Below are positions 100 through 36,000 of a stretch of DNA of 38,866 bases, piece by piece; the first letter of the stretch is position 1, and each line of letters opens with the position of its first letter. Location: IMG/VR virus record IMGVR_UViG_3300010411_000004, positions 1-38,866 of that record. One strand, 5' to 3'. Below the pieces are notes generated by a model. It was not told the DNA's origin. It made no database searches and saw nothing but the letters and a program-made list of their open reading frames with translations. Origin of the DNA: a virus. The translations under genes and the position numbers were made by a program.

Positions 100-2364
100 G
101 AGCGGGCCGATGCGGTGGGCTGGCTGGAAACCAGGATCGAGACAGAGCTGAAGGAGCAGGAAGAGCGGCGGGCCGCGGTGAAGGCTGAGGCCGAAGAGAT
201 CCAGAAGGCGCTGGATGCGGCGCTTCCGCGCCGCAAGACGGCGGGGCATAATGTGCGTTCAGTGGCCGAACGTTTTGCAGACAGTAATTCGCAGGTGCTT
301 TTCCTCGAACAGCGGTTGCTGGAAATTCCAATGTTTGGAAAAGACGCGGACCGCAAGAAGGCCGAGAAGATGATGAAGGCGCTGGCGTTTGATCTGGCGG
401 CGGCCAATTTCCACAAAAACAACAAGGTGGCGGAAGATAACCGGGCGTTCGGGCAGTCCATCGAGCAGATTTACGGAGTGCGTTTTGCGGAAAACGAGCT
501 GAAGGCACTGATGAAGCCGCTGGATGCGTTCCGGAAGTTCAGTATGGACGGGCAGGCGCTGAGCCGCGCTCAGGTGTTGCAGATGCTTGGGATGCTGGCG
601 CAAGAGGATATTCGCAGTCGGGCGGGCATTCTTCGGGAGATCGAGCAGAAACTTGAAACCGGAAACGTGAAACTTGAAGGCAAGGCGGAGGATATTGCTC
701 AGAGCCTTTGGCAGACGCCGGATGAGTTTATCAAGTACCGTACGTCCAAAGGGGTTGAGCTGAACAGCTATGAGCTGTTGCAGGCCGTGCGCGGGGTGCA
801 GGATGGGAGCAAACTGGCGCGCCGGTTGGAGTTGGAACCGGCAATGATTCAGGCGTTGCGCGAAACGAGCCCGGCCGACTTCGAGTTGCTGGATTGGTTC
901 CGGAAATACTATTTCAACAATCGCGCCGCGCTGAGCGAGGTGAATAAGCAGGTGACCGGCTTTGTGATTCAGCCGCCGGATGCGCTTTATATTCCGTCGA
1001 AGGTCGATTTCCGCCGGTCGCCGATTAAGTCGGTGAACATTTCCATGCCGGTGGTTCCGCCGTCGCTCACGCCGCGCGTGTTCAATACCCGCGATCTGTC
1101 GGAAAGTGCGGACATCATCAGCATTTACATGAGCCGTCTGGAGAGCAACGAGCATTTCATCAACTTTGCAAAACTGCATCAGCGGGTCGCGGGCATCTTC
1201 GGGGATCCGGAATTGACCCGCTCGCTGGAGCTGACGCACGGCAAGCGGTTTTCGGATCAGTTGGGGGTGCATCTGCGCGACGTATTGAGCGGCCAGCCGA
1301 TCACCGGCGGCAAGATGGAAGTGATTGATGGCCTGGTCAACTTCTTTGCGGTAACCCGGCTGGGGTGGAACCTGAGCCTGTTCCCGAAACAGCTCACCTC
1401 TCTACCGTCCTTTGCTATGTATGTTGACAGCCAGGCGTTCTTCTCGCATATCGGCAGCGCCTTTTCTCCGGAAGGAATCGCCGCCATGAAAGAGATTCTG
1501 GCGAGTCCGCACGCAAAAACCCGCATGCGTACTGGGCAGACGCAAGTGGATCGCGACATTCTGAGCGGAATGAATGAAAACGGGATGACGGTTTGGGAGT
1601 TTTATAAACGCTTTGGGCGTTATCCAACCATGGCCGGTGACATCGGGCCGACGCTGGTATTCGGGCAGGGATATTACCGCGCCATGCTGGACGATGCGGC
1701 CAAGCAGGGAATGCGGACGGATGAGGGCAAGGAATGGGCGATGGATCAGCTTTGGCGGCTGGTTGAGATGAGCCAGCAGTCTGGCAGTCTGATCAATATG
1801 GCGGAGTGGCAGCGGCACGGTGGAAGCGCGGGTCGCGCGCTGGGCCAGTTCATTTCAACTCCGTCGCAGTTTTGGGCGAAGCAGGTATTTGACTGGCGCG
1901 ACTGGCGGGCGGCGATTGAGGCGGAAGGCAACGGATCGGATCGCGCGAAAGCGGCGGCCGCTCAGTTGGCAAAAACCACGCTGATCAACCATATTCTGCT
2001 TCCGGGGCTGTATAACGGGGTGCGCATTCTGTGGAACGGCATGCTGGGCGAACCGCCGGACAAGAAAGATGCGCTGGCGCTTTTGAGCAGCGTCCTTGTC
2101 GGGCCGTTTGCTGGAATTGTTGTACTCGGTTCTGTTGTTGAGGGTATTGCGTCCGGTCTTATAACTGGACAAGTGCGTTTCGGCGGAGATGATATGATTC
2201 CAATCTCTGGAATTGCATCGGACGCGCAGACGCTGGCGGCAGCGATGAACGAGCTGTTTAATGGCGACTTTGACGCAACGCTCAAGGATCTGAATCGGAT
2301 ACTGAAGGGAATGGCCCCACCCTACCGCGACGCTTCCAAGGCATGGAAGAACTATAGCGAGTAA
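1..2364 (+). CDS. 3' part of the giant internal virion/ejection protein, continuing from 33086..38866
   Basis: Frame 1 is open from base 1 to the TAA at 2362..2364. Codons 1..99 repeat the last 33 codons of the open frame at the window end (APDGADVAEWVQDAIDRY...). The C-terminus has hydrophobic helices (ALALLSSVLVGPFAGIVVLGSVVEGIASGLITG). The GTG at 19 used by the ORF track is internal. Confidence 0.85.
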   Translation, partial: APDGADVAEWVQDAIDRYNMLDRFGAFKYKKAAERADAVGWLETRIETELKEQEERRAAVKAEAEEIQKALDAALPRRKTAGHNVRSVAERFADSNSQVLFLEQRLLEIPMFGKDADRKKAEKMMKALAFDLAAANFHKNNKVAEDNRAFGQSIEQIYGVRFAENELKALMKPLDAFRKFSMDGQALSRAQVLQMLGMLAQEDIRSRAGILREIEQKLETGNVKLEGKAEDIAQSLWQTPDEFIKYRTSKGVELNSYELLQAVRGVQDGSKLARRLELEPAMIQALRETSPADFELLDWFRKYYFNNRAALSEVNKQVTGFVIQPPDALYIPSKVDFRRSPIKSVNISMPVVPPSLTPRVFNTRDLSESADIISIYMSRLESNEHFINFAKLHQRVAGIFGDPELTRSLELTHGKRFSDQLGVHLRDVLSGQPITGGKMEVIDGLVNFFAVTRLGWNLSLFPKQLTSLPSFAMYVDSQAFFSHIGSAFSPEGIAAMKEILASPHAKTRMRTGQTQVDRDILSGMNENGMTVWEFYKRFGRYPTMAGDIGPTLVFGQGYYRAMLDDAAKQGMRTDEGKEWAMDQLWRLVEMSQQSGSLINMAEWQRHGGSAGRALGQFISTPSQFWAKQVFDWRDWRAAIEAEGNGSDRAKAAAAQLAKTTLINHILLPGLYNGVRILWNGMLGEPPDKKDALALLSSVLVGPFAGIVVLGSVVEGIASGLITGQVRFGGDDMIPISGIASDAQTLAAAMNELFNGDFDATLKDLNRILKGMAPPYRDASKAWKNYSE
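326..340. repeat. TTCCAA-TGT-TTGGAA palindrome, perfect copy
   Basis: Read directly. It lies inside the giant ORF (codons IPMFGK). Confidence 0.9.
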
Positions 2365-2382
2365 ATGCAATCCAGTTCCGCC

Positions 2383-2396: not shown

Positions 2397-2414
2397 GCAG
2401 AAGGAGTTCTGTCT

Positions 2415-2891
2415 ATGAGAAAAATACTTGTCGTTTTGTTTATTGTCGCCGCCTGCTTGGTTGCTCGGGCAGAAACCTGGGTGATGACCATCACCGCCAG
2501 CACGCGCGGGATTCCCTCGCAGAATATCAGCACCAATGATGTTACGGCCTGGACAAATGGGATCAGCGTTTCGGCCGGTGGGTATTATTCCAGCGGCGGC
2601 CGAACCTATATGGCGACATCGGCGGGGACATCAACGAATGCTCCGGCGCAGCGGATGGGCGCGGCAACCGGCGCGGACGGTGTGAGCTGGTTAACCTGTA
2701 TTTCAACCCTTGGAAATAAGGGGGTTGTCGCCTGCGTTCTGAGTGGGGATGAGGTTCATTATAACCGCAATGCTGCCGCAACCACGAACATGCCGTGGAC
2801 GGTTAAGGATGTATTTGATCCATCTCGCGGCGACTGGCGGTTTATTCCAGCTGGCGGCGGTACTTCTACCGTGTCGTTTCTCGAACTATAA
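2415..2891 (+). CDS. Secreted small protein, possible CBM5/12-like carbohydrate-binding motif
   Basis: RBS AAGGAG at 2401..2406. Sec-type signal MRKILVVLFIVAACLVARA/ET. The mature part contains WTNGISVSAGGYYSSGGRTYMATSAGTSTNAP, which resembles the W..G..V..G..Y.A pattern of CBM5/12. Confidence 0.8.
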   Translation: MRKILVVLFIVAACLVARAETWVMTITASTRGIPSQNISTNDVTAWTNGISVSAGGYYSSGGRTYMATSAGTSTNAPAQRMGAATGADGVSWLTCISTLGNKGVVACVLSGDEVHYNRNAAATTNMPWTVKDVFDPSRGDWRFIPAGGGTSTVSFLEL

Positions 2892-2900
2892 GGAGCCTGC

Positions 2901-4247
2901 ATGAAACACTCTATTTTTATCCTGCTGATTGCGGTTTTCTGTTTTGGGCCTTTGCGTCCATGTCCGGCTCAGGTTGAGTCAAAAATAGTTCCGGCCGGCA
3001 ACGTTCCGGTATCGATTCGTCCCGGCCTGCTGGGGGACTCTGGGATGAGTTTGATTGACTTCCAAACCTTGGAAACAAATGCAGTTCTACGCACAGACAT
3101 CGATGGCGGGTGGTTTTATCCGGACTGGTTCGCGTGGAGCTTTACGCAGGTGGCCGCCGATGGCATACCGGACACGACGACAGTCACCACGAATAATGAT
3201 GTCGTCGTCGAAAACAACGTCTATGAAGCTAAGGCTGGAAACTGGAATATCACATATTCATCAATCCGCTCTGCTGATTTTTCTAGCCCAGCCGTTGATT
3301 CATCAACCCCATCTGTGGCCACGGCAACCGTTTCGAAAGTCACCTATGTTTCCAGTGGAACGGCAGAAATAACCGCTACACTCGGTGCCTTCAGCCGCAC
3401 CACCAATCTGGTCATGGAGGTTGTTAGTTCTCTAAGCAATCAGGTTGTTATTGGCTGCGTGAGTGGATCGGCAGTCTGCGCATTTGCGAATGGGATCGAC
3501 AGCCGCTTAACCGATGGAACTGACAAGGCCGTTTATTCCACGCAGGATCACGCCGCCACCAACTATGTGCGTAACGCATCGAGCTGGGTGGCCGACATCG
3601 ATCTAACCTGCGTCAGCCCATGGAATAGCACGGAAGGTCGTTTGCGTGCCGGAACGCTCATCGGATCAGACTGCATAATATTTGCCAACCACTACCAAAT
3701 TGGCGCCGGCGCAACCGTTCGCTTTGTCACCTCAGATAACCGGGTAATCTCGCGCACCCTGGTCTCGAAGATCGGGAGCTACACAGGTGACTGGTGCGTC
3801 GGAAAGCTGTCATCTGCAATCTCAACAAACGATTGCCGCCCGGCGCTATTGCTTCCGGAGGATGAATCGTCTTACATGCCGTATCTTGATTATCGCGGCA
3901 TCCGCGCCGCCCTTTGGGTCGATCAATACGAAAACGCCTACGTCGGCGAGTTGCGCACCACGTCTCATATCGTTTCGTCCACCGACGCAACGAGATCTCT
4001 ATATGCCAAAGCCCCAATCGTCGGTGACTCCGGCAGCCCGGTGCTCCTAATTGCCGACTCTATGGCCGCGCCAATTTTCTGCGGAACGCTTTGGAGTTCG
4101 ATGGGCGGGCTTGGATCAACCGTCAGCTACAACGCCGCCATTCGCGTCGCCGCCGCAACCCTCGGATGCGCCACCAACACCATTGTCGATGTCTACTTTT
4201 CCGCCGCAGGCTTCATTAACTTTAATCCAGGCCCCGGTACACCGTAG
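2901..4247 (+). CDS. Secreted protein with an Ig-like region and a C-terminal trypsin/chymotrypsin-like serine peptidase domain
   Basis: RBS AAGGAG at 2889..2894. Signal MKHSIFILLIAVFCFGPLRPCPA/QV. A Big_2-like stretch reads ATVSKVTYVSSGTAEITATLG. The candidate triad is H264 (FANHY), D297 (GDWCVGKL) and S377 (IVGDSGSPVLL, codon 4029..4031), with S1-like spacing. Confidence 0.8.
   Translation: MKHSIFILLIAVFCFGPLRPCPAQVESKIVPAGNVPVSIRPGLLGDSGMSLIDFQTLETNAVLRTDIDGGWFYPDWFAWSFTQVAADGIPDTTTVTTNNDVVVENNVYEAKAGNWNITYSSIRSADFSSPAVDSSTPSVATATVSKVTYVSSGTAEITATLGAFSRTTNLVMEVVSSLSNQVVIGCVSGSAVCAFANGIDSRLTDGTDKAVYSTQDHAATNYVRNASSWVADIDLTCVSPWNSTEGRLRAGTLIGSDCIIFANHYQIGAGATVRFVTSDNRVISRTLVSKIGSYTGDWCVGKLSSAISTNDCRPALLLPEDESSYMPYLDYRGIRAALWVDQYENAYVGELRTTSHIVSSTDATRSLYAKAPIVGDSGSPVLLIADSMAAPIFCGTLWSSMGGLGSTVSYNAAIRVAAATLGCATNTIVDVYFSAAGFINFNPGPGTP
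3060..3074. repeat. TTCCAA-ACC-TTGGAA palindrome, perfect copy
   Basis: Read directly. It lies inside CDS 2901..4247 (codons FQTLE). Confidence 0.9.
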
Positions 4248-4255
4248 GAGATGCC

Positions 4256-5047
4256 ATGAAAAAAATGATTTTGCCAATAATGATTTTGCCAATGCTATTC
4301 CTATCCGGATTTGCCGCCGACCAGACGATCGCTCCGCTTCCAAAAATGACCGCCGCCGAAGCGTCCGAAACCGTACTCCCAGACGGCGTGATCGTTCGCA
4401 TCACCGATACATCGCCCGCCGATGTGCGCGTCGGCGACGGAGAAACCGCTGGCGGAATTCAAATCGGCGACGGCGAAGGCTGGCAGGAAGGCGACACCCT
4501 CACGCAAGATCTCTACACTGGCGGTCACACCATCCACCTCGGCGACTGGTCGATCCTAACTCTTGGCGGATGGGGCGCTATTGCGGGCGGCTCTGAATCG
4601 GTCTCTAACGACGGGACAATGCAATTCTCTGTGCTCGGCAGCATCCTCTTTGAGCTATCCAGCGAAAGCTCGCTCGTCAACATTAGCTCATTCGTCTGGG
4701 TCTCTCCGTACTTTGAAATAACAACGCTGCGCGGCGAAGTGCAACCCACCATCATGTTTTCCAGCAACCTCGTCTCCGGCGCTTGGGCTGAGGCTACCGT
4801 CGCGGAAGTTGTCACCAACGAAACCACCTTTGTTTTTAAAGTCGAAGCTCCAACGTCATACGGCTACTTCCGCGCCACCATCCCCAGCGGAAGCGGATCT
4901 ATGGCGAATTTTACAGCAACGATCCGGCAGAACGGAGAGCCGGTTGTAACAACTGGCACGGTGAATCTTTCCGGCCGACTTTTTGATGATGGGACAAATC
5001 TATTTGTAGTCGTTGGATCAGTGACAAATCAGCTTACAAGCAATTAA
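4256..5047 (+). CDS. Secreted protein with a tail-fibre-like Mtd_N-type motif
   Basis: RBS AGGAG lies 5 nt upstream. Signal MKKMILPIMILPMLFLSGFA/AD. VIVRITDTSPADVRVGDGETAGG resembles the ..DT......DG.T.GG N-terminal motif of BPP-1 Mtd and fibre proteins. Confidence 0.8.
   Translation: MKKMILPIMILPMLFLSGFAADQTIAPLPKMTAAEASETVLPDGVIVRITDTSPADVRVGDGETAGGIQIGDGEGWQEGDTLTQDLYTGGHTIHLGDWSILTLGGWGAIAGGSESVSNDGTMQFSVLGSILFELSSESSLVNISSFVWVSPYFEITTLRGEVQPTIMFSSNLVSGAWAEATVAEVVTNETTFVFKVEAPTSYGYFRATIPSGSGSMANFTATIRQNGEPVVTTGTVNLSGRLFDDGTNLFVVVGSVTNQLTSN
4265..4294 (+). repeat. 15-bp tandem duplication (atgattttgccaata / atgattttgccaatg)
   Basis: Read directly, 14 of 15 bases identical. It duplicates MILPI/MILPM in the hydrophobic core of the signal peptide. 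Confidence 0.9.
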
Positions 5048-6270: not shown

Positions 6271-6303
6271 CCGCATCCTTGCACGGGATGCGGTTTATTT
6301 TTT
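6271..6303 (+). terminator. Rho-independent terminator at the end of the late/lysis operon
   Basis: Stem ccgcatcc, loop ttgcacg, stem ggatgcgg, followed by tttatttttt. Confidence 0.75.
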
Positions 6304-7872: not shown

Positions 7873-7889
7873 AGGGAAGACCTTAGACT

Positions 7890-8213
7890 TTAGGCTGTAG
7901 GCTTGAGGGTGGAGTTTTTGCCACAAAAAACACGATAGGACACGAAAAGAAGCAGTCCGGCGGTGAAGGGGTCAATGACGGCCCACAGCTCCCGGTCGAG
8001 GTGGATGGGAAGCAGTGGGTTGAACAGGACGGACGTTCCGATTAGAACGGAACGTATCCAGCGCGGCTGAAAGTTCCAATCTTTGGAAAACAGCAGCCAG
8101 AGGGCGCAGGCGGTGACGGCGATGCGCAGCAACTGGTAATAGCCGTAGGGCATGGGTGCCCAGGCCAGCAGAAGCGCGGCGGCTGTGGCGATGGATGGAA
8201 GATGTTTTTTCAC
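7890..8213 (-). CDS. Small polytopic membrane protein
   Basis: The GTG start overlaps the upstream stop (GTGA). It has 3-4 hydrophobic helices and the motif PYGYYQLLRIAV. It is co-oriented with the integrase. Confidence 0.65.
   Translation of the reverse strand: MKKHLPSIATAAALLLAWAPMPYGYYQLLRIAVTACALWLLFSKDWNFQPRWIRSVLIGTSVLFNPLLPIHLDRELWAVIDPFTAGLLLFVSYRVFCGKNSTLKPTA
8074..8088. repeat. TTCCAA-TCT-TTGGAA palindrome, perfect copy
   Basis: Read directly. It lies inside the minus-strand CDS 7890..8213. Confidence 0.9.
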
Positions 8214-8616: not shown

Positions 8617-8817
8617 TTATTTCCAAAGTTTGGATAGTTTGCCGCCCGGTGTAATTTGCAAGACGAGCCTTCTGTAGTTGTTACAGCATGGATAGTTAAG
8701 TCCTTTTTGATAGTCCAGAACTTGCATCGTGGCCGTAGCTCCGCAATTTACGCAAGGAGTGGTTCGGGTTGGTTCGCTTGCGCCGCACTTTTTAAACATT
8801 CGAATTATCCAGTTCAC
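8617..8817 (-). CDS. Small Cys-rich (zinc-ribbon-like) protein, first gene of the leftward operon
   Basis: The ORF contains CVNCG...CC. The start is uncertain (GTG 8817 or ATG 8799) and no strong RBS is present. Confidence 0.4.
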   Translation of the reverse strand: MNWIIRMFKKCGASEPTRTTPCVNCGATATMQVLDYQKGLNYPCCNNYRRLVLQITPGGKLSKLWK

Positions 8818-8906: not shown

Positions 8907-9083
8907 ATGAGTAACAAGCGGGCAGATAATAAACGAATGCTGGGTGCGTGGATTGATGGTGATTTGAAGCGCCAACTTCGTGCTTTGGCCAAAGAAAAAG
9001 GCGTGTCTATGTCCGAGCTTGCTACTCAAATAATCGAAGAGCAATTAGCGATTCGGAAGGGTAAAAATCATGAAGAAAAATAA
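8907..9083 (+). CDS. Ribbon-helix-helix (CopG/Arc/Mnt-like) DNA-binding protein
   Basis: The 58-aa product contains KRMLGAWIDGDLKRQLRALAKEKGVSMSELATQIIEEQL, a beta-strand followed by two helices as in RHH proteins. Confidence 0.8.
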   Translation: MSNKRADNKRMLGAWIDGDLKRQLRALAKEKGVSMSELATQIIEEQLAIRKGKNHEEK

Positions 9084-12815: not shown

Positions 12816-13127
12816 ATGACTGAACAGATGACAATGGATTACCGGAACGATGTGTGTTCCGGACGGCACGGCGGGAACGCGAACAGCGCGGCGGCCAACG
12901 CGCGGGCTGGTCTGCATAAGCATTCTGACCGGGCGCAGATTCTGGAGCTGATCCGCCAGGCTCCGGACGGGATGACGCTGAAGGAACTCTGTTCGGCGCT
13001 GAAGCGGTTGCCGAATGAGATTTCCGGCCGGTTGACCGAGTTGAAGACGGGCCGGTTTAAGAATGGGCGGATTTATATCCGGGTGAACGGAAACCGGAAC
13101 GGGTGCGGGGTGCATTACGCGGTTTGA
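12816..13127 (+). CDS. Winged-helix-like DNA-binding protein
   Basis: RBS AAGGAG. ILELIRQAPDGMTLKELCSALKRLPNEISGRLTELKTGRF resembles a wHTH recognition unit. Confidence 0.65.
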   Translation: MTEQMTMDYRNDVCSGRHGGNANSAAANARAGLHKHSDRAQILELIRQAPDGMTLKELCSALKRLPNEISGRLTELKTGRFKNGRIYIRVNGNRNGCGVHYAV

Positions 13128-13182: not shown

Positions 13183-13575
13183 ATGAGAAAGCTACAGGGT
13201 CACAAAGTGAATCCGGCGAATGATCGGCTGGAAATTGAAGTGATGGATGCGCCAGGTGCCGGAGGTGCAAATCATGTTTATCGAGTAACCGGATTTGATG
13301 CTCCAGCCCCAAAGCGTGAAGAAATTCCGGCGGCTGATGGATCGGCAGACATTATTTTTCAGGATGGTCCTATTCCTGAAAATGGCGTGAATGGGTTGAC
13401 GCAGGAAGTTCTGTTGGAAATCTGCGCGGATCGCCTTCGCTCGTTTCAGGCCGGGCCGTTTGCCTGCCGTGAAAATGCGCTGGCACTGACGAAGATCGAA
13501 GAGGCGCAGATGTGGCTTCAGAAGCGTACGCGTGACCGCATGGCTCGTAACGTCGAAGGCACTCACAAGCTGTAA
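13183..13575 (+). CDS. Conserved phage protein of unknown function
   Basis: RBS AAAGGAGG. The motifs GAGGANHVYRV and NGLTQEVLLEICADRLRSFQAGPFACRENALALTKIEEAQMWL...RNVEGTHK recur in many phage hypothetical proteins, from memory. Confidence 0.8.
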   Translation: MRKLQGHKVNPANDRLEIEVMDAPGAGGANHVYRVTGFDAPAPKREEIPAADGSADIIFQDGPIPENGVNGLTQEVLLEICADRLRSFQAGPFACRENALALTKIEEAQMWLQKRTRDRMARNVEGTHKL

Positions 13576-13581
13576 TCAATT

Positions 13582-13627
13582 TTCTAACCCTTGGAAATTT
13601 CCAGACGGATTTTTCCAAGGGTTGGAA
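13582..13627. promoter_or_regulatory. Intergenic pair of TTCCAA-N3-TTGGAA-type palindromes forming a 12-bp inverted repeat
   Basis: TTCTAA-CCC-TTGGAA is at 13582..13596 and TTCCAA-GGG-TTGGAA is at 13613..13627. AACCCTTGGAAA (13586..13597) is the reverse complement of 13612..13623. Confidence 0.6.
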
Positions 13628-13661
13628 TGGTGCAACGATTTTAACGCGAATGGAGATTCCA

Positions 13662-14036
13662 ATGTTCAGAAGAAAAAAGCGGGCGACAGTGGATGCGGAG
13701 CAGTTGCAGGCCGTGGTGAATCTTATTCCGGAGTATGTGGACGCCCTGATTGAGGAACGCCGTACCCGGACGGCGGCGGCGAACGGGTTGGATGCGCGCG
13801 AAACGCACGGTCCAGCAGAGCGCAAACTAAAGAAGGTGGAAGCGCGTATTCATGAACTGCTTGGAAGCAAACCACGGAATACACCGAATACACGGAAAGA
13901 AGGTCTGACGTGCGCTCAGCAGCGGCGGTTTTTTCTATTTGGAACGTCTCGCCATGGCGCAAAGGCGCAGCGAGGGAATGTTGTTTTCGGGGATTGCGCC
14001 GGGCGTGACCTGATTAAGCCCGAGGTGCGGTCATGA
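13662..14036 (+). CDS. Hypothetical protein
   Basis: ATG 13662 lies 6 nt after GGAG. The N-terminal half is helical. The C-terminal half has odd composition and overlaps several palindromes. Confidence 0.45.
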   Translation: MFRRKKRATVDAEQLQAVVNLIPEYVDALIEERRTRTAAANGLDARETHGPAERKLKKVEARIHELLGSKPRNTPNTRKEGLTCAQQRRFFLFGTSRHGAKAQRGNVVFGDCAGRDLIKPEVRS

Positions 14037-24093: not shown

Positions 24094-25095
24094 ATGCTTA
24101 AATTTATTCTTGCGATGTTTTTTCCGCTGTTGCTTGGTTCGGTTCGCTATGTTGGCGAAGACGGAGGTGGTGATGGCGGCGGTGACGGCGGAGCTGGTGG
24201 TGATGGTTCCGGTGACGGCGGCGGATCTGGGGGTGATGGTGGCGACGGTTCTGGTGGCGTGATTAATCATGGCGGTGGAGCGCATAGCCGGGAGCTGAAT
24301 CCGGACGGTGATCGCAAACCTGCCGGTGGCGACGGCGCAAAGCCGTGGTATGAGACGGCCGGGCTTCCAGCTGAATTACTGACGGACAAGGACAAGGAAT
24401 ATAAAACACTGCCTGATTTCGTGAAGGGGGCCCAGAGCGCCCGCCAGCTGGCGGCATCCAAAGGGATTCCATTGCCTCCGAAAGACGCTACGCCCGAACA
24501 GCAGGCGGCCTTCAAGGCGGAAGTGATGAAGCATTTTCCGGATCTGCCGATGGCGCCGGAAAGCGCGGACAAGTATGAAATTCCGATGTTCAAGGATTCC
24601 GGTCTGGCGGAGGGTCGGCAGAAGGCGATTAAAGAATCGTTCCATAAGGCCGGTCTGAGCAATGCGCACGCGGCGGCGGTGATGGATGTGTATTCCGAGC
24701 AGGTTGCTCAAGACATTGCTGAAATTCAGGCGCAGGTTGCCGAGCAGCGCAAGGTGACGGAAGCCGAGTTGAAGCAGGCATGGGGTGCTGAATATGCAGA
24801 CCGCAAGGCCGGGATCGACCGGATCGGCGCGCGCTATCCTGAACTGATGGAAGTCATGAAAGCGTCCGGTCTGGATGGCCGCAAGGACTTCAATGAGATG
24901 ATGGATGAAGTGGCACGCAGTGTTCGGGAGGATCATCCCGGCGGATCGGGTCGCGAAAGTGCGGAGTCGGTAGACGGGCAGATTAAGGATCTGCGCGAAA
25001 AAATCAAGAAGACGGAAAACTCGCACGAGCGCAGTAAGCTGATTGAGCAGCAGGGTGCTTTATATAAAAAGCGCGAAAAACTGCGCGGGCGATAA
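24094..25095 (+). CDS. Scaffolding protein (putative)
   Basis: RBS TAAGGAG. It lies between the portal and capsid genes. It has a Gly/Asp low-complexity tract and a long helical, charged C-terminus. The N-terminus is hydrophobic (MLKFILAMFFPLLLGSV). Confidence 0.7.
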   Translation: MLKFILAMFFPLLLGSVRYVGEDGGGDGGGDGGAGGDGSGDGGGSGGDGGDGSGGVINHGGGAHSRELNPDGDRKPAGGDGAKPWYETAGLPAELLTDKDKEYKTLPDFVKGAQSARQLAASKGIPLPPKDATPEQQAAFKAEVMKHFPDLPMAPESADKYEIPMFKDSGLAEGRQKAIKESFHKAGLSNAHAAAVMDVYSEQVAQDIAEIQAQVAEQRKVTEAELKQAWGAEYADRKAGIDRIGARYPELMEVMKASGLDGRKDFNEMMDEVARSVREDHPGGSGRESAESVDGQIKDLREKIKKTENSHERSKLIEQQGALYKKREKLRGR

Positions 25096-26860: not shown

Positions 26861-26894
26861 AAAGGCGGGACGGGGAGCCGTTCCGCCTTTTTTG
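26861..26894 (+). terminator. Rho-independent terminator
   Basis: aaaggcgg...ccgccttt stem followed by a T-run. Confidence 0.75.
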
Positions 26895-28215: not shown

Positions 28216-30797
28216 GAGTTTTCCGGCATAATCTGAGTGGCGGTGTGCTTGGAGCGGACCTGCATTACCGGTCTGATCTGGAGCATTACCACAAGGGAAA
28301 TCTGGTGCAGGAAAATTTCCTACCGACGCCCTATGGCGGTGTGATGCGCCGTCCTCCGTCTGAAAAGTTGATGGAGCACGGACAGGTTACGGTTGAGGCG
28401 GTGGTTTATTCTCCAGAAGCGATTCGTTATTTTGACTTCATTTATGACCGGGATGCGCAGTATGTGGCGGCTCTGATCAGTTATGCGGCGGACGGGCATG
28501 ATTCATGGAGCCGGTTTGAAATTTTTGATACGGAAGGCACGCTAAAAGACACGGTGGATTGCGACTATGCAGCGCTGAACTTTCATGAACTTGCCGCCAA
28601 ACAGCTAAACGATGTGATGTATCTGTCGCACAACGGCTATCCGTTGAAGAAGCTGGTGCGTAACGGGGATGATAATTGGGGGATTGAAGATGCGGTGATG
28701 AAAGGCGGTCCGTTTCTTCCATGGAATGTGGATGAGACCACGCTATACGTCGAAAAAGAGGCATATGATGCTGGAGTGACGTATGCGGCAGGCGATGTGG
28801 TTCATTCAGGTGTAGATGATGTTTCTGTAACTGCCGCCGCTTATGTATTTTGGTATAGCGTACGCTTTGGATCAAGAGATCGTTACACCCGGTCGTTTTA
28901 CTTTCTTCGTCTAACCATTGGAGTTCATACTATTTTAGTGGGAGATGTTGTAAAAGTTTCAGGATTTTCCGGAGAAGCGTATCCAATTAATGGCATATAT
29001 TCGGTAGAGCGCATTGGTACTGGCTATATTGAAGTAAACACAGGAAGATCAACCGATAATCAAACCTATACATGGGTTAATGATTACCCACTTCCAACAT
29101 CGTTTTCAGATGAATCAGTTGGAAAAAATGGCGGGGATCAGTTTTTTGTTTCTATAAAAAATGCCAACACTGGCAATGCGCTTCCTGTGGCTCCGGCCAT
29201 TGAAACAGATTGGTGGCGCAGGACATCGAATCCCGGCGAACTAACGCTGAAATCGTCTGATGATCTATTCACCTCGGACAATATCGGGCAGAAGCTTTTT
29301 TGCGCGGTAAATATTGCGCAGACGTATGATGGGGTTTTTGATGCTGTTGGAGAAAATTCCGACCCAGTTGCGTATAGCAATGGGGCGGTTACGTTGCGCA
29401 CGGAAGGCGGTGTTTGGGGCGGGATTTTGGCCCTGCAGAAGAGTGTGGACGGCGGGGTGACATGGGAAACCATTGGTGTGATCAATGGCGGCGGCGGCAA
29501 TCACAACGGAGAGATTACGCGAGATATTGAAGAGCCGCTGGTTGTGCTGCGCGTGCTGATGCAGACGTATGAGACGGTGACAGGCGGAACAAATTGTAAG
29601 TGGCAACTGGAGTTTCCGCAAGGCACTCCGTTTATTGGAACCATCACGGCGGTAACGGATGAGCGGACGGTCACAGTGAGTCCTGAAACGGCGCTGACGA
29701 AGCTTTTCCAGACAAAGAACTGGAAGCTTGGGGCATTCAATGAGGCCAACGGTTATCCGGGCGTTGTTTGCATCCATGATGAGCGGTTGATTTTGGGTGG
29801 ATCAAAGCTCCAGCCGTTCATGGTCTGGGGCTCTGCCGTGAATGGATGGGATAATTTCGCGGATGGCGTGCTGGAAACCTCTCCGATTGCCATTCAGGCC
29901 AATGCTGACCGGGCAACGCGGCTCTGCTGGCTGGCGAGCAAAGGGGAGCTGCTGTTCGGAACGGACTTCAATGAGTATTCCGCCGGGTCGCGCGATTCAG
30001 ATACCATCATGAGCGGGGTGAATCCTCCGAAAATTCAGGTGCAGAACTCCTACAGCTCCGCACCGTTGCAGGCGCTGCTGATTGGTGAAGATGTAATTTT
30101 TGTGCAGAGCGACTATAAGACGCTGCGAAGCATGGCCTTCAGTGATGCGAAATGGGGTTATGCCGGTCAGAACATGACGATTTTCAGTCCGGACATTGCG
30201 GGCAGCGGCTTCCGCTGGCTGGCGGTGCAGAAGAGCCCGTTCCCGGTCATTTGGGCGGGCACGGAAGATGATGATCTGATTTCGTTCACCTACGACAAAG
30301 AAAGCAACATTATGGGCTGGGCGAAGCATCCGCTGGCCGGTGCGGATGTGGTGAGCGGCTGCATTATTCCAACCCTTGGAAACGACACGCTGTTTATTTG
30401 CACAAAGCGCGGAGACACGTTCCAGATGGAACGGCTTTCGTATGACAACCAGGTGTTCGCGGATGATCAGGGCGGCACGGATGAAACTCTGACTTCTTTG
30501 ATTCAGCCGACCAGTCTGGTGCAGGGGCCGAATGCGCTGGAGGATCCGCGCTATCGGATCACGAAGGTTTATCTGTACGTCAAGGATTCGCAGGGCGGGG
30601 AGGTGAGTCTGGATGAAGGCGAAAACTGGACGCCGATTGAATATGATGATGATGCGCTGTTCACCGGTAAGCGGGAGGTGTTGATTCAGTCCGGCACTAC
30701 CGAAAAGGCCCCTTTGCAAATCCGCACCTCTGGAACGAAACCCTTTAACCTGCTGGCGGTCGGGATCGATATTGACCGTCAAACCACAAAGGATTGA
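28212..30797 (+). CDS. Tail tubular protein B (T7 gp12-like nozzle)
   Basis: 861 aa, positioned after the tubular A gene with an ATGA overlap. The N-terminal LSGGVLGADL...NFLPTPYGGVMRRPPSE parallels gp12 LKGGISQQP...NGWSSETEGLQKRPP. Confidence 0.82.
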   Translation: MRVFRHNLSGGVLGADLHYRSDLEHYHKGNLVQENFLPTPYGGVMRRPPSEKLMEHGQVTVEAVVYSPEAIRYFDFIYDRDAQYVAALISYAADGHDSWSRFEIFDTEGTLKDTVDCDYAALNFHELAAKQLNDVMYLSHNGYPLKKLVRNGDDNWGIEDAVMKGGPFLPWNVDETTLYVEKEAYDAGVTYAAGDVVHSGVDDVSVTAAAYVFWYSVRFGSRDRYTRSFYFLRLTIGVHTILVGDVVKVSGFSGEAYPINGIYSVERIGTGYIEVNTGRSTDNQTYTWVNDYPLPTSFSDESVGKNGGDQFFVSIKNANTGNALPVAPAIETDWWRRTSNPGELTLKSSDDLFTSDNIGQKLFCAVNIAQTYDGVFDAVGENSDPVAYSNGAVTLRTEGGVWGGILALQKSVDGGVTWETIGVINGGGGNHNGEITRDIEEPLVVLRVLMQTYETVTGGTNCKWQLEFPQGTPFIGTITAVTDERTVTVSPETALTKLFQTKNWKLGAFNEANGYPGVVCIHDERLILGGSKLQPFMVWGSAVNGWDNFADGVLETSPIAIQANADRATRLCWLASKGELLFGTDFNEYSAGSRDSDTIMSGVNPPKIQVQNSYSSAPLQALLIGEDVIFVQSDYKTLRSMAFSDAKWGYAGQNMTIFSPDIAGSGFRWLAVQKSPFPVIWAGTEDDDLISFTYDKESNIMGWAKHPLAGADVVSGCIIPTLGNDTLFICTKRGDTFQMERLSYDNQVFADDQGGTDETLTSLIQPTSLVQGPNALEDPRYRITKVYLYVKDSQGGEVSLDEGENWTPIEYDDDALFTGKREVLIQSGTTEKAPLQIRTSGTKPFNLLAVGIDIDRQTTKD
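30367..30381. repeat. TTCCAA-CCC-TTGGAA palindrome, perfect copy
   Basis: Read directly. It lies inside CDS 28212..30797 (codons IPTLGN). Confidence 0.9.
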
Positions 30798-31475: not shown

Positions 31476-33053
31476 ATGGGCCGGATACCGATTGATTTGA
31501 GAGTGGACTACAGCCAGCGCAATCCGGAACCGACTTCGGTACCGGGTGATTTTGGCATGGGGCGTTTCCGGGCGGTGCAGGAACGAGCGGCGGTGATTGG
31601 CAAGATCGGCGGGCAGGTGGCGGACATTGCCACGGAGTATGCCGCCAAAAACAAGCAGGCCGATCTGCGGGCGGATAATCTGGCGTTCAATACGCAGTTG
31701 CAGTCCATCCAGTCCGATGCGTCTCAGCGGGCATCCCAAACCGATGATCCGAATGAAATCCGGCAGATTTGGGACGAAGCGCACAGCCGGATTGGCAGCT
31801 GGATAAGCGGTAAGAATGAAAAGGGTGTGCCAAATATCCGCTGGAACGATCAGCGCGGCGAGATGATCAGCGCCGGGGATGCACTCAAGAGCGGATTCCA
31901 AACGTCGGCCGAGCGGCGTATTGCCGAGGTGGGAAAGCGCAACAGCAACGCCAAAGCGATGCAGGCGCGTTATGACGGAAAAATGAGCGGGAATCCTGAC
32001 GGGATTATTCAGGGCGTCACCGTCATGCGGGAAAACGGAACCTATACGGCGGAAGAGGCTAAAATTCAGATGCAGGCCGATTTTGTTGAAATGGATATGA
32101 CGGTTGCCAAAAACAACATCGTTGCCATTGAGGGGATGGAGCCTGCCAAGGCGCTGGCGGCTTCGCTGGCGTTTGAAAAAGCCATGACCGTTAAAGAGAA
32201 AGACGGGAAGTGGAGCGCGTTTGAACACCTTCCGGATGGAAAGCGGTCTGATTTTGTGAATCAGGCGAAGAAAGCGGCGGCTGACTCACAGACGCGGTTT
32301 AAAGCGCAGCAGGCGGCTGCGCAGGCGCAGAGCAATGGGGCGGTGGTGGACTTCTTTGTGCAGAACGGCAGGGCTCCTACAGCATCGGAGCGCGCCGGTA
32401 TGGGATTGACGGCAGAAACAGTCCAGAGTTTGGAAAGCGGGCAGATTGAAAAGATCAGTCCGGAGCTGGAAGAACCGGCGGCGCTTCAGTTGCGGCAGGA
32501 AATGCTTGGATATAATCCGGCGGAGGATGTCGGGCGGGCGCAGCAGTTGGGTTGGGCGCGGCGGATTGAAGGATTTACTGATCCAGGCGTTAAGAAATTT
32601 CTGCGGGATAATTTGGAGCGCGCAACCACGACGGATGCAAATGATGTTGATAGTCGGGTAAAAACGCAGATTGAGGATGCGCTGGGGAAGGACTTTAAAA
32701 CCGGATGGGGGCATGGCTGGAGCAAAGACGAAAAGCTTATTCAAATTGATCTAGAGAAGTCGGTCTATGATCAGTGGGTAAAGAAAAATGATCCTTCTCC
32801 TGTTGAGCGTCTGCAATATACCACGACGGGGCGGTTTGCTGATTTAAAGAGAACGGATGATCTTCAGCGGTTCAAAACGACGCTTCAGCGGTCGTTTGCG
32901 GCTCCGGCGGAGTCTGGCATTGAGTCGGTGCGGCAGAAGGCGCAGGGGCAATATTCGCGCGGAATCATCCGGCAGATTGTCGGGGTTCGTCGGGTGAATG
33001 GCGTAGTGGTCGAGCGGGTGTATGACGACGGCACGCGCGAAGCGGTAAAGTGA
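31476..33053 (+). CDS. Internal virion protein (second, gp15-position)
   Basis: 525-aa helical protein between the first internal protein and the giant ORF. Confidence 0.7.
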   Translation: MGRIPIDLRVDYSQRNPEPTSVPGDFGMGRFRAVQERAAVIGKIGGQVADIATEYAAKNKQADLRADNLAFNTQLQSIQSDASQRASQTDDPNEIRQIWDEAHSRIGSWISGKNEKGVPNIRWNDQRGEMISAGDALKSGFQTSAERRIAEVGKRNSNAKAMQARYDGKMSGNPDGIIQGVTVMRENGTYTAEEAKIQMQADFVEMDMTVAKNNIVAIEGMEPAKALAASLAFEKAMTVKEKDGKWSAFEHLPDGKRSDFVNQAKKAAADSQTRFKAQQAAAQAQSNGAVVDFFVQNGRAPTASERAGMGLTAETVQSLESGQIEKISPELEEPAALQLRQEMLGYNPAEDVGRAQQLGWARRIEGFTDPGVKKFLRDNLERATTTDANDVDSRVKTQIEDALGKDFKTGWGHGWSKDEKLIQIDLEKSVYDQWVKKNDPSPVERLQYTTTGRFADLKRTDDLQRFKTTLQRSFAAPAESGIESVRQKAQGQYSRGIIRQIVGVRRVNGVVVERVYDDGTREAVK

Positions 33054-33056: not shown

Positions 33057-33071
33057 TTCCAAACCTTGGAA
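33057..33071. repeat. TTCCAA-ACC-TTGGAA palindrome, perfect copy, intergenic
   Basis: Read directly. It lies between the stop at 33053 and the giant ORF ATG at 33086, and abuts the RBS region. Confidence 0.9.
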
Positions 33072-33085
33072 ACGGAGATTGAGGC

Positions 33086-36000
33086 ATGAAATTACCCGAA
33101 GGATTTGAGCCCGTTGTTTTACCCAAAGGATTTGAACCGGCGACGGCGGTGGATCAGCCCGATAGCAGTCCGGTTCCAGTGGCGGGCTGGGAGCATTTCT
33201 ACAAGTACGCCAAAAGCGGAAAGTATAATCCGGCGGAAGAGCGCAGCGGGTTTGTGCTGGGCGCGATTGAGGCGATGGGGATTGATGTGGGCGGTGTGCA
33301 GGATTGGACTCCGGAGCAATACAAAGAGCGCGATGCGCTAGAGATTGGAAGCCAGTTCACTCCTGGCGCGCCGCGGGCAGTCAGTCCGTTTGAGCAGATT
33401 TCAAAGACGGCTTTCGGGCGCTCGATGAGCATGGAGGATGCGGAGAAGGAACTGCTTGGGCGCATGGCGAAGATTTATGATGAAACACCCTTGCAGGAAT
33501 TCAACCGGCAGGATGTGCAGACGCAGCAGGATCAGGCGGCAAAAAGCGAAAACAAGCGCCGCAAATTTGGCCGGCAGACGGATGCCGGTCTGGGAACCAA
33601 TGAGCCTCGCCTGAATATGCCGGGGGTGGACTATACGCAGTTCACGAAGGATCAGCTTCCGCTTCAGCCTGCCGATCAGCCGGGCATGGCCGATGCGGTG
33701 GAGCGCGAGCGGATCGATCTGCTGCAGAAGTCGAACGGCGATTTATTCAAGCTGGCGCAGGGACAGCTGACGCGCAAAGAAGAGATGATTGGTCAAAGCA
33801 TGATCAATGCGGCGCGGGTCGGAAATGACGCCCTGCAGGATGTTGTGAATGCGCATGCGGATACCCTGCTTGAAATGGATTCGGATAGCTGGAGCTGGAT
33901 GCGGACGTATGTGATGACACAGATTCCGGCAGAGCAGGCAAACTTTGCACAGCGCATTCTTCCGTCGGCCACAGCGCAGCTTTCCAATCGTTGGAAAAAT
34001 ACCATTTATTCAGCCAAAACGCTGGGTGTAGACATGCTCGGACTGTCGAGCGATGCGGAGCGGATCGGGCGGGAGTCTGAAAGCCGTTTCCAAGGTTTGG
34101 AACTTTTTGACGAAGCGGGCAAGGTGCTGCCTGATCATGAGGAGAAGTTGCGCGAGATCATTCGCAAAGAGGTGGATGCAAATCGGATTGAGGGCGGGCT
34201 GGACAAAGCCTCGCGGCAGAAGATCGAGGATTATTATTTTCAGAACTTTTCAACGGTCATTTCTCCAGCGATGCGGCAGGCGAAGCTCGACCGGCTGAAA
34301 TACGGAGCCAAGGCGCTGGCGGATCCGCAGTATAATCAGCTTGACGGGTGGCAGGAATTAACGCTTTCGGCGATTGGTACCACGGTGGACATGGCAGCGC
34401 TGGCGCTGGTGTCGCGGATTCCAGTGGTCGGGTTTGGTCTGACGGTCGCCAGCACCTATGGCAGTTTTCAGGGTGATCTGGAGCAGAGGCTGGTGTATCA
34501 GAACGACATGCCGCTCTCTCAGGCGCGTCTGCTTTCCGGAATTGCGGCGGTTCCGTATGCGATGACGGAATACTCGCAGGCGTTCCATTTGGGTAAGGCA
34601 CCGAGTCTGCTGCCGTTCATCGGCGAAAAGAACGCCCCGCGCATCTTTATGCAGGCATTTGGCAACTATTATCGCCGGGCGGTCTGGCCGGAACTGCGCG
34701 AAGAGTACATTCAGGCGGGCATTGAATTTGCGGCCATGGAAACCGCGCGTGTTTTTTGCGATTCCAAAGGGATCACTTTTGATCAGAATATCAAAAGCGC
34801 GGTCAACGATGCGGTGCAGGCGACGTTTATTATGCCATTTGTAACAGGATTTGGTGGATTTGGTGTTAGTGCTGGCAAAGCAATCGGAGATGGGTCTTTG
34901 CGGTCGTTTATTCCTGAAGAACTGCGGCAGGCTGTGCGCGATGTACGCAGTCCGGTAGATGTCTATGAATCGGCGCAGAAGGCGCGGCGGGCGGTGCGGG
35001 CAATGGATGAGCTGGGAACGCGGCCAAATCAGTATCCGGCGAAGCTGACGGAAGCCGTCCGGCTTCTTGAACAGCAGGGGGAAGGAACGAAACCCGGCCA
35101 ATCGGTCATCACTCCGAAGCAGAATCCAGACGGGACTTGGGTGGATGTTGCTGAAAACTCTGAAGCACAGCTGATGAAGACGCTGGCGGAAGAGGGCTAT
35201 GAAGATCCGGCGAATGCGTTGGATGGTATTCGGGCGCAGATTCAGCTGGAGGATGCGGTGCAGGAACGGATTCAGGCCGGGGTGAAGCAGTACCAGGATC
35301 AGCTTTCTGCGCAGCTCGATCAGAATGATGACACGGATGTATCCGTTGGCCCGAAGATGGGGCTGGTGCAGGGGGCCATGCAGACCTATGGCGATGCGCT
35401 GGGTGTCAACACAGAGGTTTACAGCACGCAGGAAGAAGCGCTGGCGGCGCATCCGGAGCTGAAGGTTGCCAATGGTGAGAAAATCAAGGCCGTCAATCTA
35501 GATGGACGGCGGATTGTGATGGTGGAAGAGAATTTGACGGATTCCAAAGATGCTATGAGCCAGTGGTGGCACGAGGCGGGCGGGCATCGCGGTCTGGACA
35601 TTAACCCGAAGGCGCAGCGCTTCCTGGACGGTGTGAAGGATGAGCTGGGGATTGACTTCATCAAAAGCCAGATTCCGGCGTTTTATCACAATCAGTCGGA
35701 TGCTGAGATGGTGGGTGAATATCTCTCGCGGCTGGTGGGGCGTGCCGGGCAGAGCGGCGAGCTGGGCGCAACGGAGCAGGAAAAGGGCGTTTGGCAGCGT
35801 TTTAAGGATTGGGCGGGCACAGAGCTGGGGCTGGATATGCAAGAGAACGTGGCGGCGCGTAGCGTGGCGCGCACGGCCAAAGACATTCTGGCCTATGCCA
35901 AGGGGTTCGACGGACGTTATCCGGACGGTATGACCGTCAAGCTGGAGCGCAAAGCCTACACGCGGCAGGGCGGGCAGTGGGTCAACGAAAAGGGCCGGGC

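Follow-up and report, generated by a model that had tools for sequence, protein, structure and literature searches.

The stretch of viral DNA analysed here (38,866 nucleotides, hereafter the window) carries the circular 38,767-bp genome of a temperate, T7-like podovirus. Its genes include one for a serine integrase and one, which we call the giant gene (start ATG at 33086, last base of the stop codon at 2364), for a polyvalent virion protein of 2,681 aa. Adjoining the integrase gene is a minus-strand gene (7890..8213) with a Pfam match to DUF6804 (E 6e-22), and a zinc-ribbon membrane ORF, DUF6804 and integrase make up a leftward, minus-strand lysogeny operon that opens at ATG 8602. Farther along lie a winged-helix ORF (12816..13127) and an Acb2/Tad1-like gene (13183..13575).

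Scattered through these genes and the gaps between them is the 15-bp palindrome TTCCAA-N3-TTGGAA, for which we recovered all eight perfect and all five one-mismatch copies listed by the initial annotation (Table 1), along with just two sites bearing two mismatches (13657 and 32421), so that the copies concentrate tightly on the consensus. The over-representation claimed for these copies is borne out, as dinucleotide shuffles gave means of 0.01 perfect sites and 0.09 sites with at most one mismatch, and the observed counts were never attained. When synonymous codons were shuffled inside genes and intergenic DNA was kept intact, a mean of 2.19 perfect sites remained. Two of these are intergenic and hence unaffected by the shuffle, which leaves an expectation of about 0.19 perfect sites in genes, where 6 are observed. 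With this excess at fixed codon usage and with in-gene copies spanning three codon phases (FQTLE, IPTLGN, IPMFGK, SNRWK), we concur that the palindrome is a signal at the DNA (or RNA) level, tolerated by coding sequence, and not a peptide repeat. The window has 21 perfect palindromes of 6-N3-6 form, and in 8 of them the arm is TTCCAA. The TTGGAAA-type flank noticed earlier is present, as TTGGAA followed by A or TTCCAA preceded by T, at 11 of the 13 sites, and sites 33057 and 34088 do have 19 nt in common (TTCCAAACCTTGGAAACGG) in opposite orientations; to this we add that the centre base of N3 is G or C at every site in the window. Sites 13582 and 13613, whose starts are 31 nt apart, are the window's single phased pair, and the two-mismatch site at 13657 may belong to this intergenic cluster as a degenerate third copy.

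Table 1. Copies of the TTCCAA-N3-TTGGAA palindrome in the window and their gene context.
Site	Coordinates	Strand	Sequence	Context
Perfect	326..340	.	TTCCAATGTTTGGAA	in giant virion-protein gene, read IPMFGK
One mismatch	2198..2212	.	TTCCAATCTCTGGAA	in giant gene; mismatch at innermost arm position
One mismatch	2334..2348	.	TTCCAAGGCATGGAA	ends 16 nt before last base of giant gene stop codon (2364)
One mismatch	2701..2715	.	TTTCAACCCTTGGAA	in ORF 2415..2891
Perfect	3060..3074	.	TTCCAAACCTTGGAA	in ORF 2901..4247, read FQTLE
Perfect	8074..8088	.		in minus-strand DUF6804 gene (7890..8213)
One mismatch, intergenic	8621..8635	.		19 nt upstream of leftward operon ATG (8602, minus strand)
One mismatch, intergenic	13582..13596	.		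starts 7 nt past stop of Acb2/Tad1-like gene (13183..13575)
Perfect, intergenic	13613..13627	.		ends 22 nt before ATG of ORF 13650..14036
Two mismatches	13657..13671	.	TTCCAATGTTCAGAA	44 nt after site 13613
Perfect	30367..30381	.		in tail tubular protein B gene, read IPTLGN
Perfect, intergenic, 7-bp arms	33057..33071	.	TTTCCAAACCTTGGAAA	between ORF 31476..33053 (starts 4 nt past its stop) and giant gene (ends 14 nt before ATG 33086)
Perfect	33982..33996	.		in giant gene, read SNRWK
Perfect	34088..34102	.		in giant gene, read FQGLE

Site content varies widely among related phages, one of which has zero sites in 22.5 kb, and of the five in-gene sites that can be aligned to relatives, 30367 alone is conserved. 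There, TTCCAACCGTTGGAA is kept in relatives L253 and L255 though the protein at that position is IPTVGS, and the site is absent from L254 and from L256, the latter encoding IPTLG with other codons. At site 326 the homologous codons of L253 are ATTCCGATGTACGGA, with three differences and no indel, and the positions in L253 aligned with sites 33982 and 34088 are TTTCGAACCGCTTCAGG and TTCCGGGGTGTGGAA, respectively. Sites in window genes and non-sites in relatives align free of gaps, codon choice making or breaking the site at 30367; the in-gene phage sites originated by point substitution.

Scanning contigs of 185,579 species genomes (596 Gb) for pairs of perfect sites separated by 10-40 nt returned at least 120 matches, against about 0.07 expected by chance in 596 Gb (an arithmetic estimate). 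Among the 80 matches listed, of which many contigs derive from the same MAG, those classified below phylum belong to Kiritimatiellia, Kiritimatiellales, Pontiella or Tichowtungia, and the others have PVC labels or are unclassified, the exception being one rumen MAG labelled Prevotellaceae (L169). Host loci totalling 867 kb contain 397 perfect and 86 one-mismatch sites, and the density of sites in the phage falls within the host range. TTCCAA is the sole over-represented 6-N3-6 palindrome in these loci (396 copies in this count, where any other arm has at most 10) and its arms stay constant across loci of 47-67% GC, which argues that a sequence is recognised and not only a structure. The extended consensus is tTTTCCAA-nSn-TTGGAAAa (S = G or C), with a centre base that is invariably G or C in host sites, A and T tracts that flank it in phase and symmetrically, an innermost arm pair that is the least conserved position, and centre-triplet "dialects" that vary from MAG to MAG. 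We found no published description of this motif. Many unrelated viral contigs have the same consensus and the same 31/32 spacing, and we detected no protein common to them and the window in the contig parts compared. The initial view of the palindrome as a phage signal is therefore not supported: since it also fills Kiritimatiellota genomes and unrelated phages, the phage carries the host lineage's own signal. Phage genes also score positive under codon usage trained on host loci.

In host loci as many as seven sites line up in an array, with a quantised start-to-start spacing of 21/22 (n=19), 31/32 (n=211), 42/43 (n=12) or 52 nt (n=1) and almost nothing between, the first three classes equalling 2, 3 and 4 helical turns and the most frequent, at 31 nt, being that of the window pair. 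Choosing these loci for two sites with 10-40 nt between them introduces an ascertainment bias into the surplus of pairs and into the 25-55 nt range, but not into the empty intervals inside that range or into the 21/22 class, which falls outside it. With genes called by our own codon-model caller, multi-site clusters are intergenic in 124 cases and in genes in 32, in loci that are 88.5% coding, and their median distance is 28 nt to the stop codon before them and 69 nt to the start codon after them. Most arrays sit directly 3' of stop codons (e.g., 1-20 nt past the stop), and convergent gaps of 54-67 nt are each filled by one pair. Divergent gaps carry arrays about as often as convergent ones do (22 versus 21), a pattern that matches neither a simple promoter nor a simple terminator, and sites past stop codons are not biased in orientation relative to transcription (C 84 : G 66). 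The neighbouring genes are unrelated housekeeping genes, in-gene host sites are spread over the codon phases (29/24/23), and phased pairs also occur within Mur ligase, AroB, MnmE, SufB/D and GreA-like genes. The initial annotation had reasoned that a motif equally frequent in the host and lacking positional conservation in related phages would be a compositional feature of the host; the motif is indeed host-wide and kept at one of five alignable sites, but it is not a mere compositional feature, because the host copies form helically phased arrays at gene ends.

The reading we favour, and to which we give about an even chance, is that the palindromes are copies of a Kiritimatiellota-wide DNA element to which an abundant dimeric host protein binds, and that the phage has acquired them. 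From the site geometry alone we infer that the ligand is a protein on duplex DNA, and the effect of its binding is likewise a matter of interpretation. Such an abundant, conserved protein would bind double-stranded DNA as a symmetric dimer and would oligomerise along one helix face where sites are 2, 3 or 4 turns apart. In host chromosomes the sites mark gene ends. This temperate phage gained its sites via point substitutions, to a density within the host range and with host-like placement (the phased pair past the Acb2-like gene, the single site between the gp15-like and giant genes, the single site upstream of the lysogeny operon), additionally bearing isolated in-gene copies, and its DNA would thereby be handled like host DNA by the host protein. 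Possible roles include insulation of transcription units and nucleoid or topological organisation; the effect would presumably not be simple termination, because a protein roadblock within essential genes would be costly. Dimeric protein binding, as first proposed, thus survives as the best mechanism, but the phage winged-helix ORF is not supported as the binder, given the host-wide motif and an HTH_20 match that is sub-threshold (E 0.007, 16.8 bits versus a cut-off of 27).

The main rival, possible though we doubt it, is a REP/REPIN-like hairpin functioning as a stem-loop in RNA or ssDNA, be it a 3' mRNA decay block or an attenuator at gene ends, or the substrate of a hairpin-specific enzyme such as a RAYT-type transposase or an Ssn-type nuclease; single hairpins would be weak, neighbouring sites would join into a 15-16-bp stem, and phage copies would serve the phage's own transcripts likewise. 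Arrays 1-20 nt past stop codons and filled convergent gaps would suit this, as would the folding of the window pair past the Acb2-like gene (region 13575-13635), where sites 13582 and 13613 can pair mutually because their centre triplets, CCC and GGG, are complementary, giving a 16-bp stem of -30.7 kcal/mol as RNA (z -6.1) and -16.1 kcal/mol as DNA. Any two sites can form a long hairpin, a typical host pair folding at -19 kcal/mol, and mirrored complementary changes in 3 of 6 two-mismatch phased partners are consistent with base pairing. Precedents are the regular spacing of palindromes in BIME clusters (PMC2817692) and the Neisseria NTS/dRS3, hairpin repeats that are sequence-specific and have an enzyme of their own (PMC11893778). 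However, single sites fold at merely -4 to -5 kcal/mol, not clearly beyond shuffles (-4.8 kcal/mol, z -0.5 at 33057), and adjacent sites have identical centre triplets in 67 cases but complementary ones in 40, a balance that does not favour perfect long stems. Hairpin loops give no reason for spacing steps of ~10.5 nt, the stem has no T-run behind it and its flanks are symmetric, and canonical GC-rich terminators coexist with host arrays (31/119 versus 59/306) and are used by the phage 3' of its capsid genes. REP families typically differ between species, unlike these phylum-wide constant arms; no recurrent, site-flanked transposase-like (RAYT-like) gene was found among 612 host genes, and copies lie within genes too.

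Molecular drive, in which a motif that resembles uptake signals (DUS, USS) or results from biased repair or methylation (a proposal made for HIP1) accumulates in any DNA resident in these hosts, prophage included, and phage copies are passive, seems to us improbable. It would account for in-gene copies at all codon phases in host housekeeping genes and phage, for the dialects, and for the differing site content of related phages, and this phage, being temperate, spends part of its time as host DNA; yet drive alone explains neither the helically phased arrays nor the strong gene-end preference, the intergenic phage sites are positioned exactly like the host's, and site 30367 persists in L253 and L255 although the surrounding amino acids have changed there. 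We give very little credence to a phage operator set bound by a phage dimer, the winged-helix ORF or an RHH-like ORF (~8908..9083): the phage has small DNA-binding-like ORFs, and some of its sites look regulatory by position (ahead of the lysogeny operon, between genes, before the giant gene), but the motif also lies beside unrelated chromosomal genes in many Kiritimatiellota MAGs and in viral contigs whose compared parts encode nothing homologous to the window's proteins, most sites are absent from phage relatives, and the HTH match is below threshold. Least credible of all, close to negligible, are N4-like hairpin promoters for a virion-delivered RNA polymerase, with the giant protein as the polymerase. 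Early promoters of phage N4 have a 5-7-bp stem and a 3-nt loop, with which the geometry here (6-7-bp stem, 3-nt loop) agrees, and the genome encodes a virion protein of 2,681 aa; but Pfam, PHROGs and PDB sequence searches found no RNA polymerase domain in it, its only domain match being a weak LPD3 polyvalent-protein domain, and the sites are symmetric, orientation-free, in genes and host-wide.

Several known systems resemble the element in part. HIP1 of cyanobacteria (GCGATCGC) is likewise a palindrome in strong lineage-wide excess within and between genes, but it is 8 bp long and is not known to be arranged in phased arrays or concentrated at gene ends. The DUS of Neisseria and USS of Pasteurellaceae share with it a lineage-wide motif with dialects, presence in genes in all frames, (inverted) pairs after genes and copies in phages, resident prophages in their case, but are asymmetric 9-12-mers not known to form helically phased arrays. 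Operator arrays of the Lrp/AsnC type (E. coli Lrp at pap and ilvIH; archaeal Ss-LrpB boxes) match its 15-bp dyad sites of 6-3-6 layout set whole helical turns apart (~31-32 bp), where binding is cooperative and DNA is wrapped; they are, however, promoter-proximal, number tens to a few hundred and have a degenerate consensus, in contrast to the near-invariant consensus, gene-end preference and in-gene copies seen here. The Neisseria dRS3/NTS (ATTCCC-N8-GGGAAT; SsnA nuclease) is also a palindromic repeat, perfectly conserved over hundreds of copies, recognised by sequence and structure and linked to phage biology (PMC11893778), but NTS is oriented by non-palindromic flanks where the flanks here are symmetric, and helical phasing is not reported for it. 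The REP/BIME elements of Gammaproteobacteria and REPINs are short palindromes numbering in the hundreds per genome, bound by host proteins, mostly extragenic at gene ends and regularly spaced in clusters (PMC2817692). The element described here differs from them in that no RAYT-like gene was seen among the host genes compared, in direct orientation being commoner than alternating, in spacers that are not conserved, in AT-rich arms of 6-8 bp that are phylum-constant rather than species-specific, and in having copies in genes and phages.

Evaluating the window for copies of TTCCAANNNTTGGAA, we recovered all eight perfect and five one-mismatch sites that the initial annotation had reported, each in its reported place, along with just two sites at two mismatches. 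Dinucleotide-preserving shuffles of the window gave means of 0.01 perfect sites and 0.09 sites with up to one mismatch. With synonymous codons permuted within every gene, ~0.19 perfect in-gene sites were expected versus 6 observed, and the motif is therefore explained neither by codon usage nor by protein sequence. Finer details of that annotation held as well: the A/T flank was seen at 11 of the 13 sites, sites 33057 and 34088 (sites are named by start coordinate) have 19 nt in common in inverted orientation, and the in-gene copies use all three codon phases. To this description we add that the spacer has G or C at its middle position without exception. Nine of the 13 sites lie in genes and four within the 4.8% of the phage genome that is non-coding (p 0.003), with six inside or just before the gene for a giant virion protein and none across the packaging and head genes (13.7–30.3 kb).

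A scan for two perfect sites 10–40 nt apart, run on one genome per species for 185,579 species, returned at least 120 matches versus about 0.07 expected by chance. Among the matches listed, which carry taxonomic labels as submitted, in many cases share one metagenome-assembled genome (MAG) and are not a census, the records classified below phylum were Kiritimatiellia, Kiritimatiellales, Pontiella or Tichowtungia, bar one rumen MAG labelled Prevotellaceae (contig L169); the remaining matches listed bore PVC labels (Lentisphaerae, Verrucomicrobiota, Spartobacteria) or were unclassified. Our 867 kb of host loci (Kiritimatiellota-type contigs selected by the pair pattern) held 397 perfect and 86 one-mismatch sites, TTCCAA being the only over-represented arm among 6-N3-6 palindromes (396 copies versus at most 10 for any other). 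The arms were invariant across loci of 47% to 67% GC, and the host consensus extends to tTTTCCAA-nSn-TTGGAAAa. Centre triplets vary by MAG, with TCA/TGA in many and GCC, CCC or ACC in others; those of the window are of the GCC/CCC/ACC kind, like MAGs of similar GC (e.g., the source of L134, L135 and L138), and a codon model fitted to the host loci scored the phage genes positive. The motif assigns the phage host to Kiritimatiellota, for which there are, to our knowledge, few phages or genetic tools. Cluster density in the window (about one per 3.5 kb) is inside the range of motif-rich MAGs and higher than the fetched-loci average of roughly one additional cluster per 9 kb with the ascertaining pair discounted.

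Host arrays contained up to seven sites, and their start-to-start spacings fell at 21/22 nt (19 cases), 30–33 nt (222 cases, 211 of them at 31/32), 41–43 nt (14 cases) and 52 nt (1 case), with almost none between these classes, such that the steps of ~10.5 nt correspond to 2, 3, 4 and 5 helical turns. The scan pattern confined pairs to 25–55 nt, and can produce neither the gaps within that range nor the 21/22-nt class beyond it. Spacer sequences vary among copies, even in one MAG, A and T tracts recur in phase with the site spacing, and the use of 31 or 32 nt is independent of site orientation; judged by centre base, neighbours were direct in 65 cases at spacing 31 and 41 at spacing 32, and inverted in 29 and 32, respectively.

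Using gene calls from our own codon-model caller (88.5% of the loci coding), we found 124 multi-site clusters in intergenic DNA versus 32 in genes (about 20% of the 156 classified); of the single sites, 29 of the 48 that could be classified fell in called genes. Arrays in tandem contexts sit at a median of 28 nt past the upstream stop and 69 nt ahead of the next start, some of the convergent gaps, 54–67 nt long, contain one 46–47-nt pair and little else, and divergent gaps held 22 arrays versus 21 in convergent ones. After stop codons, site orientation is unbiased relative to transcription. The neighbours of arrays are unrelated housekeeping genes, and about a third of all genes in the loci are touched by a site. 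Within host genes the sites divide 29/24/23 by codon phase. Pairs of perfect sites 31–43 nt apart also occur inside well-supported housekeeping genes, namely Mur ligases, AroB, MnmE, SufB/D and a GreA-domain protein; their spacing is not a multiple of 3, which implies a DNA-level constraint inside essential coding sequence.

The intergenic phage sites are positioned as in the host. The only phased pair in the window, 13582/13613, lies directly 3' of an Acb2/Tad1-like gene, beginning 7 nt past its stop; site 33057 starts 4 nt past a stop and ends 14 nt short of the giant gene; and site 8621 precedes the leftward lysogeny operon by 19 nt. In four relatives (L253–L256), tail tubular protein B is 69–78% identical at the amino-acid level. 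This comparison does not support a set of phage repressor or regulator operators found only in this phage and related ones at fixed regulatory positions, since the motif is host-wide, positional conservation extends to a single one of the five in-gene sites that can be aligned (30367, in L253 and L255) and L254 lacks any site in 22.5 kb. L253 and L255 keep site 30367 though their protein reads IPTVGS rather than IPTLGN, and L256 encodes IPTLG there via other codons and has no site. The L253 sequences aligned to sites 326, 33982 and 34088 differ from them at 3–5 positions and show no indels; such indel-free alignment of in-gene sites led us to reject a small mobile element inserted into genes and, together with poor conservation, indicates that the sites arise by substitution rather than insertion and turn over rapidly. 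A phage is thus able to converge on a host genomic signal via synonymous and near-synonymous substitutions. Sites of its own occur elsewhere in L256, including two pairs at 22-nt spacing that are separated by 2.6 kb and probably both lie inside its giant gene; their similar local sequence (…CGGAAGAAAAT[C/G]TTCCA…) suggests a duplicated segment. The remaining assemblies of this phage show 100% identity to it and are thus uninformative on population variation.

Strict conservation of the arms, two-fold symmetry extending into the flanks, indifference to transcription direction and, above all, whole-turn spacing point to a symmetric cooperative dimer on duplex DNA as the ligand of the sites. Such a protein would read the duplex, cooperating along one helix face and possibly wrapping the DNA, and its binding might insulate transcription units or contribute to topological or nucleoid organisation. 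The winged-helix ORF of the phage, named in the initial annotation as a candidate binder, has a helix-turn-helix match below threshold and is unnecessary to explain the sites. The chief competing reading gives the sites a hairpin role: two neighbouring sites are able to fold together (-30.7 kcal/mol and z -6.1 for the window pair) and three of six double mismatches are compensatory, but loop lengths have no cause for helical-turn quantisation and neighbouring centre triplets are identical oftener than complementary. Further, a single site folds weakly (-4 to -5 kcal/mol) and its stem is followed by no U-run, which, with the A-rich 3' flanks and the separate existence of canonical terminators in host and phage, also led us to reject an intrinsic terminator.

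Canonical GC-rich terminators show no depletion in the host where arrays occur, and GC-rich hairpins with T-runs in the phage indicate that ordinary terminators are used alongside the palindromic motif. We likewise rejected TTGGAA-N16/17-TTCCAA, formed between adjacent sites, as a -35/-10 promoter, as the arrays are closer to upstream stops than to downstream starts and convergent gaps are filled by them. Hairpin promoters of the N4 type, an idea raised by the giant ORF, were set aside since no polymerase domain was found in the 2,681-aa protein by Pfam, PHROGs or PDB sequence search and the motif is host-wide. An Rfam scan at gathering thresholds of the window and eight motif-rich loci returned nothing but an unrelated cobalamin riboswitch in L165.

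Compared with known systems, the motif is closest in distribution to REP/BIME, Neisseria dRS3/NTS and DUS or USS, with copies genome-wide, in and between genes and across the whole lineage as for DUS/USS. Its geometry resembles Lrp-type phased operators, with dyad-symmetric sites of ~15 bp at whole-turn spacings (here 21/22, 31/32, 42/43 and 52 nt), as in cooperative operator arrays of the Lrp/AsnC-like type. However, REP/BIME are extragenic only, whereas the Kiritimatiellota and phage motif also lies inside genes, and they are spaced regularly in alternating orientation, whereas here the spacing is regular (31/32 nt) but direct pairs outnumber inverted ones. Among 612 genes in the 867 kb, no recurrent small family was flanked by sites on both sides as a RAYT-type or transposase-like gene would be. 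Overall, the motif fails defining features of each family for which these could be tested, and we found it described neither in Kiritimatiellota nor elsewhere in open-access papers and bioRxiv preprints. We rate the element as a lineage-wide interspersed palindromic repeat, with the phage copies representing carriage of a host signal. A bolder and, to us, rather doubtful proposal is an undescribed genome-wide system of Kiritimatiellota, in which a conserved protein would occupy thousands of near-invariant 15–19-bp palindromes, in helically phased arrays at gene ends and inside essential genes, as a sequence-programmed, nucleosome-like or insulator-like chromosome layer; phages would acquire matching sites through point mutation, and their DNA would thereby be organised or tolerated as self. 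A phylum-wide, strictly conserved and helically phased element points to a putative abundant DNA-binding factor, which is directly testable with a 19-bp duplex probe.

Among the matches listed, scanning IMG/VR for TTCCAANCCTTGGAA revealed several contigs of 52–58% GC with 3–6 sites each and the same extended consensus. Two perfect sites 10–40 nt apart occurred in 15 viral stretches from 14 contigs, with the 31- or 32-nt start-to-start spacing of the window pair recurring among them. In the parts fetched, the motif-bearing viral contigs had no detectable homologue of any window protein, and a search for a binder common to them (33 window proteins queried by tblastn against every fetched locus) gave one distant portal match only. 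In one unrelated viral contig (L130), an ORF with HExxH-type and JAB/RadC-like motifs has a phased site pair inside it. Another (L131) carries six perfect sites at 7607–7832 within an ORF that has no Pfam match; these read as the repeated peptide GVPKFGT(P/S)S at spacings of 60, 42, 36, 42 and 45, all multiples of 3, and may represent either a repeat at the peptide level or intragenic iterons.

Features of the window, its relatives, other viral contigs and host loci (window coordinates unless a contig is named)
Feature	Coordinates	Strand	Remarks
Giant ORF	33086..38866 joined in frame to 1..2364	plus	single 2,681-aa protein, 3' of internal virion protein genes
Small (Sf6-like) and large terminase			
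Portal and capsid			T7-type
Tail tubular proteins A and B			
Internal virion proteins			ahead of giant gene
PcfK/PcfJ-like proteins			
Lysogeny-type module	6355-8602	minus	large serine integrase, DUF6804 membrane protein, zinc-ribbon membrane ORF
Small ORF opposite lysogeny module	about 8908-9083	plus	N-terminus MSNKRADNKRMLGAWIDGDLKRQLRALAKEK resembles ribbon-helix-helix protein
Acb2/Tad1-like protein	13183-13575		130 aa; Pfam hairpin domain E 3e-6, 27.7 bits vs cut-off 27; phrog_2428 E 1e-33
Cpn10 (GroES-like co-chaperonin)	18603-18875		90 aa; precomputed Pfam hit of identical contig (L257 6817-7089)
GC-rich hairpin + T-run	6271-6293		convergent junction by integrase gene
GC-rich hairpin + T-run	25122-25144		just 3' of scaffold-position gene (24094..25095)
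GC-rich hairpin + T-run	26366-26388		just 3' of capsid gene
GC-rich hairpin + T-run	26871-26885		just 3' of 140-aa gene; conserved in relative L256
Site pair in relative	L256 16709-16745		
Site pair in relative	L256 19355-19391		
ORF of unrelated viral contig	L130 1366..9015	minus	2,549 aa
ORF of unrelated viral contig	L131 7251-8342	minus	363 aa
Host gene with internal pair	L138 1179-2585		
Host gene with internal pair	L138 4029-5324		
Host gene with internal pair	L183 2031-3320		
Host gene with internal pair	L191 3031-4956		
Host gene with internal pair	L230 389-1762		
Host gene with internal pair	L238 603-1685		

We identify the phage as a temperate T7-like podovirus. The window begins and ends with the same 99 bases (1–99 = 38768–38866, an exact direct repeat), from which we conclude that the assembly is circular, with a length of 38,767 bp; the overlap duplicates 33 residues of the giant ORF. 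The giant protein occupies what we take to be the position of gp16 in T7, and its sole domain match is a weak LPD3 (polyvalent protein) among precomputed hits; searches of Pfam, PHROG and PDB sequences gave none. When the deposited phage collection was queried by megablast with the first 20 kb of the window, nothing matched, and the portal protein has distant T7-like and pelagiphage matches only (23–28% identity); by these searches, deposited phages include no close relative. A search of the window for tRNAs was negative. The 130-aa Acb2/Tad1-like protein may be a nucleotide sponge directed against CBASS or Thoeris. Nearly all window genes are carried on the plus strand, and GC skew in 2-kb windows is positive in all but one (3001–5000), reaching a maximum of about +0.33.
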